From IMG/VR virus record IMGVR_UViG_646311924_000007, positions 1-64,000 of that record: 64,000 nt of DNA, one strand, 5' to 3'. Source of the stretch: a virus. Taxonomy: Duplodnaviria > Heunggongvirae > Uroviricota > Caudoviricetes. The notes under the pieces are model-generated. The model ran no database searches. It was not told where the DNA came from and saw only the letters and a list, made by a program, of their open reading frames with translations. How positions within the stretch are numbered: position 1 is the stretch's first letter; every line of letters starts with the position of its first letter. Made by a program: the position numbers and the translations under genes. Positions 58,282-61,200 of this stretch are shown here, piece after piece.

Positions 58282-61200
58282 AAGAGCTGTGCTATGGATC
58301 TGTTTGCAGTGGAATTGAAGCCGCGAGTATTGCCTGGGAACCGTTGGGTATGCGTCCGGCGTGGTTTGCTGAAATCGAGCCTTTTCCATCGGCCGTTCTT
58401 GCGCTCCGCTGGCCCCATGTTGCCAACCTTGGCGACATGAAAAAACTTGCCAAAAAAGTCTTGGCTGGGGAAATCGAATCCCCTGACGTGCTCGTCGGGG
58501 GAACACCATGTTTTACCGCGGGGCATATGGTTCTTTGTAAAAATGGCTATAAACCAATAGAAAATGTTTGCCCTGGTGATTACGTAGTCAGTCATCTCGG
58601 GCGGTTACAACAAGTAAAAAGAGTTGGTTCAAAAATAGCTAATACGGGGTTACTTAATGCCGTTGGGCAGCCTTTAGGTATAAGAACAACCAATGACCAT
58701 CCCTTCCTGGCTGTTCGGTGGAAAGCCCAAAACACCCGGAAAAATGGCACATATTTTAAGAGAGAGTTGTTGTCTGAACCGGAATGGCGAGCAGCATGTG
58801 ATATGCCGGGATATCAATGGTGCGCTCTAACTAATTTCAATATTGCATTTCCAGATATTTGTTCTCGGTTCTTGTCTGAAGAACAGGCTATGTATCTTGC
58901 GGGCGCTTATGTTGGCGATGGATATATTAGGAGATGGAGAGGTAAATCTAAGAAGGCGGTTGTTTTTGGCATAAATTGCCAGAAATTGAGAAAGTTTCAT
59001 TGCCGCATACCAGAAAACATATTTTCCGTGGCAAGCGAAATCCGAGGGAGCATCAAAGTAACCTTGAATGATACGTGTTATGCCAATTGGCTTAATGAAC
59101 ATTTTGGCGAGTTAAGCCATGCTAAGCGTATCCCTGCATGGGTGATGTCGCATCCATTGCGTCATGTGTTTTTACAAGGCTATCTTGATACTGATGGGAC
59201 ACCAAGTGGTAAAGCGGGATTTAGAATTAATAGTGTTAGTTCTGCGCTTGCTTGGGGCGTTGCGGGGTTGTCACAGACTTGTGGTTATGTTTCTTCGGTC
59301 AGCTTTATTGAAGTTGAGCCCAAAAAAGTGATCGAGGATCGCGTGGTAAATCAACGGAATTATTATCAGGTAACAATCTGCCCGCAGAAATTGTCACGTA
59401 AATCAAGATTGGCTCATGGAATGCTTTTACGAACAGTCAAAGAGTTTAAATCGGTAGGCCTAGATACTGTATACAACATAGAAGTCGAAGGTGATCATTC
59501 CTATATCCTCAATGGTGCGGTGGTCCATAACTGTCAGGCATTCAGTATCGCGGGATTACGTGGTGGGCTTGATGATGAGCGTGGCGCGCTAACTTTAAAG
59601 TATGTGGAGCTTGCAAATGCAATTGACGACAAACGGGCTGAGTCATTTCTCAAACCAGCCGTTATCGTCTGGGAAAATGTCCCAGGAGTCTTGTCATCGG
59701 CAGATAACGCCTTCGGATGTTTCCTTGCCGGATTGGCTGGAGAAGATGTGCCATTTGAACCAGGTGATCGACCTGAATCAGGAAAAAGCAACGCGTTCTG
59801 GCGGTGGGATGGCAAAACCGGTTGCCATGTTCCAAAGTGGCCGCAGTGTGGTTGTATTTATGGACCGCAGCGAAAAGTGGCCTGGAGAATCCTTGATGCC
59901 CAATACTTCGGAGTGGCACAACGACGCCGACGCGTGTTTGTTGTCGCAAGTGCTCGAACAGATCTCGATCCCGCAACGGTACTTTTTGAGTTCGAAGGCG
60001 TGCGCCGGAATATTGCGCCGAGCAGAGGCGAGGGGAAGGAAACTACCAGATATACTTCAAACATCGCTATCAGAACTTGCGATGATACAAACATAATTGC
60101 CATGGCACATGGGCAAGGAGGGGCTGAGATAAAAACCGATAATTCGGCACCAACTTTGACATGTAACCATGAAGCACCAATTGTATTGCTCGGCGACGGT
60201 AGAATGCGCCGTCTTACCCCTGTCGAATGTGAAAGGCTGCAAGGTTTTCCTGATTGGCATACGTTGATCCCTACGGAAAAGCGTAAAAAAGTTAATTCAG
60301 ATGAACTGGCATATCTGCACAATCACTATCCAGATTTAAGCGAAGAAGAGGCCGCAATGCTTGCAGCTGACGGACCGCGTTACAAAGCGATCGGCAATAG
60401 TATGGCAATACCAGTAATGCGCTGGATTGGCGATCGGATTACTAAGGCCGTATGTCGGCAGAAAGAAGGAAGTGAAACAAAAGAGCGAAAAGTTAAACCA
60501 GCGGCAGAATTCGAACGGTCCATATTCAAATGGGCTGGTGGAAAATTTGGTGTTCTGGAACAAATCTTTCGCTATTTGCCAGAAGGGAAGCGCCTGATTG
60601 AACCTTTCGTTGGTGGCGGAGCTGTCTTCATGAATGCCGGATACCAGGAAAATCTGCTAAATGATGTGAATGCTGACCTGATTAACTTTTACAAGACTCT
60701 GCAACGCGAGGCGCATTCACTTATCACTCTGGCACATCGTTTCTTCCAGGACTACAACACACAGGAAGGATACCTGGCAGTACGGAATGCGTTTAACAAA
60801 CAAGTCTATGATGATTTACATCGCGCAGCGGCGTTTTTGTTCCTGAACCGACATTGTTTTAACGGATTGACGCGTTACAACCAGGCCGGTGAGTTCAATG
60901 TCGGTTATGGGAAGTATAAAACTCCGTATTTCCCATTACAGGAGATGGAAGCCTTCCTCGGTGCGGAAGGGCGGTCTGAGTTTGTATGCGGTGATTTTGC
61001 AGCGGTGATTGAAGCTGCCGGAGAAGGAGATGTCATCTTTTGCGATCCGCCGTATGAACCGCTTCCAAATACAGAGGGATTCACGAACTATTCCGGTCAT
61101 GACTTTAAGTTTGAAGAGCAAAAACGCCTGGTGTCTCTGTTGACGGATGCTCATCGTCGAGGTGCAAAGGTTCTCATTACTAACAGTGGCGCGCCAAACA

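Follow-up and report, generated by a model that had tools for sequence, protein, structure and literature searches.

How can a DNA methyltransferase act when 341 residues are inserted between the proline and the catalytic cysteine of one of its active site motifs? This question is raised by the dmt gene of a P1-like (Punavirus) phage-plasmid in the 64,000-nucleotide window analysed here (positions 1 to 64,000 of IMG/VR virus record IMGVR_UViG_646311924_000007, Caudoviricetes). The dmt open reading frame (ORF; 58278..61319; all window coordinates given here are on the + strand) encodes a 1013-residue protein of 113.0 kDa, in which a C5-cytosine methyltransferase is fused to a Dam-type N6-adenine methyltransferase. 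A first-pass annotation had proposed that the inserted segment represents a LAGLIDADG intein interrupting the PCQ motif, the catalytic Cys serving as the +1 residue. The splicing hallmarks, profile matches, predicted fold, empty alleles and same-site relatives described below bear out this proposal; the segment 58509-59531 is very probably a class-1 intein of the canonical type that contains a LAGLIDADG homing endonuclease with two motifs and is located between the Pro and Cys of GGTP/CQAFS in the bifunctional Punavirus Dmt.

Reading of the DNA reveals that the insert comprises 1023 nucleotides (nt), i.e. 341 stop-free codons, encoding a segment of 38.3 kDa in which a LAGLIDADG homing-endonuclease domain divides the Hint splicing domain. 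At the 5' junction GGA ACA CCA (Gly-Thr-Pro) is followed by TGT (Cys) at 58509-58511, and at the 3' junction CAT AAC (His-Asn, 59526-59531) is followed by TGT CAG GCA TTC AGT (Cys-Gln-Ala-Phe-Ser) from 59532. On alignment with the intein-free P7 Dam (AF503408, 672 residues) and reference P1 Dmt (AF234172, 754 residues), the only large gap spans exactly these 341 residues, and both the coordinates and the residues originally proposed for an insertion between GGTP and CQAFS are thus exact. The empty site in the DNA of P7 and P1 reads GTCGGGGGTACGCCT joined directly to TGTCAGGCATTCAGTATCGCGGG. Empty-site alleles are also found in MH422554, SJ46 and JL22, the GGTPCQAFS motif being contiguous in all five intein-free proteins (for a substitution within it in reference P1, see below). 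Excision of the insert in silico gives a 672-residue protein, with a predicted mass of 74.7 kDa, that is 97% identical to P7 Dam; the expectation that removal of the insert restores motif IV agrees with the uninterrupted read-through of P7 Dam and P1 Dmt.

The N-extein (58278..58508, 77 residues) extends from the motif I region of the C5-methyltransferase to the G-G-T-P of motif IV, with Pro77 at position -1. The C-extein comprises the remainder of the C5-methyltransferase domain (59532..60512), which includes a target-recognition cassette of the P7 type (approximately 60027-60206), followed by the Dam-type N6-adenine methyltransferase domain (60513..61304; TIGR00571, 249 bits; PF02086, 192 bits). 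The C5 motifs are all intact, including the CSG region, ENVPG, QRRRR and GNSM, as is the DPPY motif of the Dam domain. In a profile search PF00145 (C-5 DNA_methylase) matched the exteins, including the N-extein, with 104.9 bits in four stretches.

The translated insert contains each of the motifs noticed at the outset, i.e. an N-terminal Cys, TxxH, two LAGLIDADG motifs and VVHN directly preceding Cys. The N-terminal splicing nucleophile Cys1 (block A) is encoded by TGT at 58509..58511, and block B is T61-N-D-H64 (58689..58700; T138 and H141 in Dmt numbering). The two LAGLIDADG motifs (58890..58925 and 59166..59201) carry the acidic residues D137 (58917-58919; D214, followed by G215, in Dmt) and D229 (59193-59195; D306, followed by G307, in Dmt), respectively. 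The C-terminal splicing region (blocks F and G, 59466..59531) ends with His340-Asn341 and aligns with the C terminus of the Spl DnaX mini-intein. DNA reading and alignment show that the next residue (59532..59534) is at once Cys+1, the splicing nucleophile, and the Cys of motif IV (PCQ), which in C5 methyltransferases is the nucleophile that attacks C6 of cytosine. In 148 relatives, H64 and the Gly following D137 are invariant, and conservation reaches at least 90% for Pro-1, Cys1, T61, both LAGLIDADG Asp residues, the Gly following D229, the terminal Asn and Cys+1.

Profile searches matched LAGLIDADG_3 (PF14528) to intein residues 221-284 with 34.2 bits (cut-off 22.5) and TIGR01443, which describes the intein C-terminal splicing region, to residues 321-341 with 25.9 bits (cut-off 15.6); the Intein_splicing model matched residues 58-341 with 21.7 bits, below its cut-off of 35.8. 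An AlphaFold model of the intein, for which the input was 12 sequences, has a mean pLDDT of 90.9 and a pTM of 0.88. The best fold match to this model in the Protein Data Bank (PDB) is PI-SceI (E 4e-18), with further matches to the Thermococcus and Pyrococcus (Tli and Pho) VMA inteins (TM 0.57-0.64), PI-PfuI and PI-PkoII. The matches of intein type (PI-SceI and the VMA inteins) have E values of 1e-16 to 4e-18, and the central part of the model resembles two free-standing LAGLIDADG enzymes, I-DmoI and I-SceI, with E values of 4e-5 to 9e-5 (TM to target 0.44-0.59).

In the mechanism that we propose, transcription of the C1-repressed Pdmt operon during infection or induction would lead to the 113-kDa Dmt precursor. 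An N-S acyl shift by Cys1 at the Pro77-Cys1 bond would be followed by trans-thioesterification, in which the N-extein passes to Cys+1, by cyclisation of Asn341, freeing the 38-kDa intein, and by an S-N shift, giving a 672-residue Dmt with its GGTPCQAFS motif whole. One cysteine would thus act as the splicing nucleophile first and as the methyltransferase nucleophile afterwards. Because the insert separates the Pro and Cys of motif IV, C5 methylation would be expected to need excision of the intein, and the activity of the Dam domain would probably be independent of splicing. Once free, the intein is predicted to cut, in a site-specific manner, the dmt alleles lacking an intein in P1-like elements that reside in or infect the same cell; repair of the cut alleles from the intein-bearing copy would convert them (homing), with a few flanking bases being carried along. 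Since splicing would restore the Dmt enzyme, the intein may be regarded as a selfish element of low cost. We infer both the splicing and the nuclease activity from the conserved features set out above.

The distribution of occupied and empty sites is consistent with such an element. The same 1023 nt, at 95-100% identity, occur in 128 plasmid records of PLSDB (113 from Escherichia, 14 from Salmonella and 1 from Shigella), of which 124 are typed as non-mobilizable and whose carriers include E. albertii and E. fergusonii, and in 151 of 5426 complete E. coli genomes (2.8%). A conserved segment of the dmt C-extein is present in 492 of the same 5426 genomes and an 81-nt probe spanning the empty site finds an uninterrupted match in 332, i.e. 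approximately 31% of E. coli dmt alleles (151/492) are occupied and approximately 68% are empty. Alleles without 58509-59531 are thus to be found both among the phages (P7, P1, MH422554, SJ46 and JL22) and in these 332 genomes. The GenBank and RefSeq records inspected mark no intein feature, and the carrier gene goes there under the names 'Dam family site-specific DNA-(adenine-N6)-methyltransferase', 'Dmt' or 'methyltransferase'; 'Hint domain-containing protein' is the automatic name of two fragment clusters. In the rearranged P1-like plasmid pTB31P2 (NZ_CP070953.1, 3501-3836), the intein ends after nt 320, with foreign chromosomal-type genes lying beyond; natural decay was considered for this shortened intein and rejected, the cause being an IS1 insertion.

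Evidence on mobility and selection comes from a comparison of nine occupied and five empty dmt alleles, with 25 segregating sites in the intein. The intein frame is open in all nine occupied alleles, among which its pairwise nucleotide diversity has a mean of 0.75% and a maximum of 1.5%. The corresponding values are 4.35% and 7.8% for the N-extein, 2.15% and 5.0% for the first 480 nt of the C-extein, and 3.1% and 7.7% for the Dam domain, so that the intein is 3-6 times less diverse than the surrounding dmt sequence. The intein is found together with the short P7-type cassette in the window, in OP279344 and in two plasmids, and with the long P1-type cassette in Ro157c2YLVW and four plasmids. 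At least three flank haplotypes carry it, including that of a plasmid allele (L008) whose 3' flank is in other respects of the kind seen in empty alleles. At -1, the nine occupied alleles all have A and the five empty ones all have T, and there is a bias at -4 and -7, where occupied alleles have A except for G at -7 in three plasmid alleles (L008-L010). The GC content of the intein is 0.427 (0.370 at third codon positions) versus 0.545 and 0.521 in the adjacent exteins and 0.480 in the window. Synonymous changes account for 13 of the 25 segregating sites, giving a pN/pS of 0.26, and dN/dS for the C5 exteins is 0.15-0.21 in occupied alleles versus 0.12-0.27 in empty ones; in this comparison of nine with five alleles, the C5 domain of the occupied alleles shows no sign of a loss of constraint. 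These diversity, haplotype and selection figures are compatible with homing, but do not prove it; the earlier reading of the insert as a selfish element draws support from the 31% occupancy, the low diversity of the intein on diverged flanks and its presence with two target-recognition cassettes.

The intein-free MH422554.1 has both flanks (nt 222-231 and the first 130 nt on the 3' side) of the occupied-type haplotype, including A at -7 and -4; the base at -1 alone is of the empty type. It represents either an ancestral recipient haplotype or a precise loss of the intein.

The insertion site is shared widely. A word-indexed protein search found 20 relatives, all in C5 methyltransferases at the same junction, of which six full-length and three partial sequences have 46-54% identity, two distant ones have 29-32% identity and one is a mini-intein without a nuclease domain. 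The rarity of the family suggested by this search was corrected by an exhaustive protein search, which gave 4287 cluster representatives at E <= 1e-3 and 186 at E <= 1e-30. End-to-end alignment of the 139 closest full-length cluster representatives shows an xP/C…N/C junction in 128, with Pro at -1 and Cys as the first intein residue, and HN/CQ at the 3' junction in 108; the penultimate His is replaced by Lys, Ser, Arg or Tyr in 13. A Pfam scan of 52 sampled relatives found PF00145 in 43 and LAGLIDADG_3 in 41, and most of those sampled are stand-alone C5 methyltransferases without a Dam domain; thymidylate synthase, amidase and phosphoesterase are the hosts of a few other relatives. As judged from these sequences, the P1-like intein is one member of a large and old family whose specialised target is the PC motif in C5 methyltransferases.

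Stages of an intein life cycle are visible within this family. One relative (P0019) is a same-site mini-intein without a nuclease domain, and in a Rodentibacter relative (P0020) the methyltransferase gene call begins inside an intein remnant. A Mannheimia haemolytica prophage (CP151240, 7971-10321) has a 47%-identical intein at the same site of a C5 methyltransferase, the C-extein of which is deleted from just after PCQ through motif VIII. The ORF stops 21 residues past the intein, the remainder being in an overlapping ORF, and an HNH_3 endonuclease gene directly follows; the intein ORF is intact though the host gene looks dead. The intein-bearing Mannheimia protein is indexed in 859 blocks of a contig collection.

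Several points weigh against the assignment of the insert as an active, mobile intein. The Hint_2 profile matched residues 1-49 with 28.1 bits, just 0.3 below its cut-off of 28.4. A sequence-only search of solved structures gave weak matches (E 0.0015 for the C terminus of the Spl DnaX mini-intein and 0.024 for PI-PkoII), and the F:4 residue of the intein is Asn (N323), Asp being usual at this position in many class-1 inteins. P1-like genomes recombine freely, and the low diversity of the intein could reflect ordinary recombination spreading one recent insertion; moreover, the diversity and dN/dS values rest on few alleles (nine occupied, five empty) and 25 segregating sites. The scissile N-terminal bond is Pro77-Cys1, with Pro at -1 also in about 92% of relatives, and in one report Pro at -1 is described as non-permissive for splicing in the natural and engineered inteins examined so far (PMC6486613); a recent split intein with Pro at this position gave 'no detectable splicing' (PMC13014065). 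Finally, in a full-text literature search, the coverage of which leaves out most subscription journals, we found no report of splicing or DNA cleavage by any member of the family.

The weakness of the sequence matches is the one observation, with nothing else beside it, that would favour reading the insert as an accessory domain native to Dmt, as a bacterial intein-like (BIL) domain or as an artefact of assembly or frame, and we assign these explanations a negligible probability. Exact presence and absence alleles differ at one peptide bond, the insert recurs in more than 270 independent records and the predicted fold is of the PI-SceI type. BIL domains are Hint domains without a nested endonuclease that occur in variable, non-conserved proteins, usually without the canonical His-Asn plus +1 nucleophile; the insert was rejected as a BIL domain, given its LAGLIDADG domain, canonical HN/C junction and highly conserved host site. 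A frame error, chance or an assembly artefact was likewise rejected by recurrence at 95-100% identity in the 128 PLSDB plasmids and 151 E. coli genomes. Because the sequence matches to solved structures are weak and the fold matches are to inteins of the PI-SceI/VMA type, the model indicates that the insert is a divergent, yet structurally ordinary, intein. The reports on -1 Pro in tested inteins (PMC6486613 and PMC13014065) bear on a different proposal, i.e. that the insert splices poorly or not at all, the occupied dmt being dead with respect to C5 methylation and kept for its Dam activity only. Consistent with this proposal, P1 Dmt is known for its Dam methylation, which serves pac-site packaging (PMC12707154), and the GenBank annotation describes its C5 activity with a 'perhaps'. 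We nevertheless consider it very unlikely, since the splicing residues are all in place and are shared throughout a family of which ~92% of members follow Pro, most relatives are C5 methyltransferases that stand alone and would not be retained for a Dam domain, and the occupied C5 exteins keep every motif and are as constrained as the empty ones.

A less improbable alternative, but one that we still regard as unlikely, is that the intein splices with a nuclease that no longer cuts, its 31% frequency and patchiness resulting from vertical descent and ordinary homologous recombination. The P1-like dmt gene is a mosaic in which target-recognition cassettes and flank haplotypes reassort, an intein-free allele with intein-type flanks exists in MH422554, relics are known in the form of the P0019 mini-intein and the Mannheimia gene with its deleted C-extein, and the evidence for purifying selection comes from 25 segregating sites only. 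Against this, both catalytic Asp residues are present and at least 90% conserved in the 148 relatives, the 341-codon frame is open in nine of nine alleles with a pN/pS of 0.26, and the diversity of the intein is 3-6 times lower than that of the flanking DNA, as expected of recent movement between backgrounds. We favour an intein with a splicing domain and a homing endonuclease that is probably active.

With respect to splicing, the -1 Pro is the most notable detail of the P1-like intein. Because Pro at this position is reported to block splicing, efficient splicing of the P1-like intein cannot be assumed by analogy. The conserved exteins and splicing residues suggest that the family is adapted to the Pro-Cys junction, with slow or conditional splicing being an alternative. 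Since the intein sits on the catalytic Cys of only one of two fused enzymes, it is conceivable, if rather improbable, that splicing gates C5 methylation post-translationally, being slowed by the Pro-Cys bond or redox-sensitive via Cys1 and Cys+1, with Dam methylation, which is needed for pac cutting, proceeding meanwhile from the same polypeptide; in its modest version this proposal amounts to a natural family adapted to -1 Pro. The native -1 Pro is relevant to a known limitation of intein tools in practice, and, if the family splices after it, its members may be a source of new splicing tools.

The genomic context implies when the intein would be made. The window from 39001 to 64000 is 99.4% identical to the Punavirus vB_EcoM-Ro157c2YLVW and 98% identical to RCS47 and other P1-like genomes, with the gene order uhr, hrdC (of the rdgC family), dmt and then tRNA-Asn, -Tyr and -Thr. 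The region 57011..57056 contains the C1 repressor operator Odmt (57011-57027) and the sigma-70 promoter Pdmt of the uhr-hrdC-dmt operon, the operator and both promoter hexamers being identical to those annotated in P1 (AF234172). Because of this identity, it is implied by analogy that dmt, and hence the intein, would be repressed in the lysogen and expressed on infection or induction. A scan for sigma-70 promoters gave no candidate on the + strand, either within the intein or ahead of it. LPdam2, a late promoter predicted inside P7 dam, aligns at approximately 60289-60307 of the window with two changes in its -22 box; if functional, its equivalent could yield a Dam-only product independent of the intein, but the prediction neither supports nor refutes independent expression of Dam. 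The three tRNA genes after dmt (61992-62238; Asn-GTT, Tyr-GTA and Thr-TGT) are arranged as in Ro157c2YLVW, whereas P1 and P7 have only those for Asn and Thr there.

The C5 domain occurs with at least three forms of target-recognition cassette, i.e. the P7 type (672 residues without intein), to which the window dmt belongs, the P1 type (754 residues) and the SJ46 type (807 residues). Ro157c2YLVW, otherwise 99.4-99.7% identical to the window, has the P1-type cassette; given this difference on a near-identical background, the cassette has been exchanged by recombination. At codon 74 of dmt, reference P1 c1-100 (AF234172) reads VLVWGTPCQ, whereas the other 13 alleles read VLVGGTPCQ. The Trp in the conserved GG of motif IV might impair the C5 activity of reference P1, and could bear on that activity being annotated merely as 'perhaps'. 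The record OP279344.1 ('P1 isolate del res del mod', host MG1655 Z1; 1501-4542) has the intein and the P7-type cassette, unlike reference P1; P1 stocks thus differ at dmt, and the occupied allele is already in laboratory use.

E. coli is usually regarded as free of native inteins. The element described here is a native intein of E. coli, occurs in about one third of P1-like phage-plasmids and is also present in Salmonella, Shigella, E. albertii and E. fergusonii. P1 is tractable, and the natural empty alleles of P7 and reference P1, beside occupied ones, provide a ready system for measuring the homing of a phage-plasmid intein. In methylome work on P1-like elements, the detection of C5 methylation could vary with the presence of the intein.

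Inteins with LAGLIDADG nucleases in conserved catalytic sites are textbook knowledge, and the general understanding of inteins is unchanged by the P1-like case. Our full-text search, with the coverage stated above, brought up no account of an intein in the Dmt of P1, P7 or Punavirus, and none of an intein located at the PC motif; its hits in the BASEL paper, a review on plasmid mobility, papers on a B. thuringiensis phage and a glacier virome, and the Azotobacter genome paper had no bearing on the subject. The P1-like Dmt intein is thus apparently undescribed for P1-like phages, though ordinary in kind, and it is no one-off, the same-site family being large and mostly undescribed. Among phages, inteins have been reported in the N6/N4 methylases of mycobacteriophages and actinobacteriophages (Kelley et al. 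2016, PMC5050341) and in an actinophage methylase family (PMC9957025), and a 2025 survey lists both N6/N4 and C-5 methylases (IPR001525) among actinophage intein hosts (bioRxiv 10.1101/2025.01.02.630785). Like the P1-like intein, these elements are phage-borne, lie in DNA methyltransferase genes, are patchily distributed and are read as homing elements; they differ in being in actinophage genes, with the 2016 cases being N6_N4 methylases, and we found in these papers neither the insertion site of the C-5 cases nor any reference to enterobacterial or P1-like Dmt.

The structural comparison is closest with PI-SceI (of Sce VMA1), the archaeal VMA inteins, PI-PfuI and PI-PkoII, which share with the P1-like intein a Hint domain split by a two-motif LAGLIDADG domain, the Cys1, TxxH, His-Asn and Cys+1 residues, and insertion at a conserved catalytic site of the host protein. 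They differ from it in host protein and kind of organism, with sequence identities of 11-17%; the P1-like intein differs further in its -1 Pro and in that its splicing and cleavage are predicted, and with 341 residues it is more compact than PI-SceI, which has 454. With the family at the C5-methyltransferase PC motif, by contrast, it shares the insertion site, the architecture and 28-56% identity over the full 341 residues, and its closest relative outside the P1 group (P0022, 56%) likewise lies in a fusion of C5 and Dam domains. Within this family the P1-like allele forms its own cluster at 50% identity, with one representative (P0021) that is 99% identical to it, and it alone rides a genetically tractable E. 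coli model phage.

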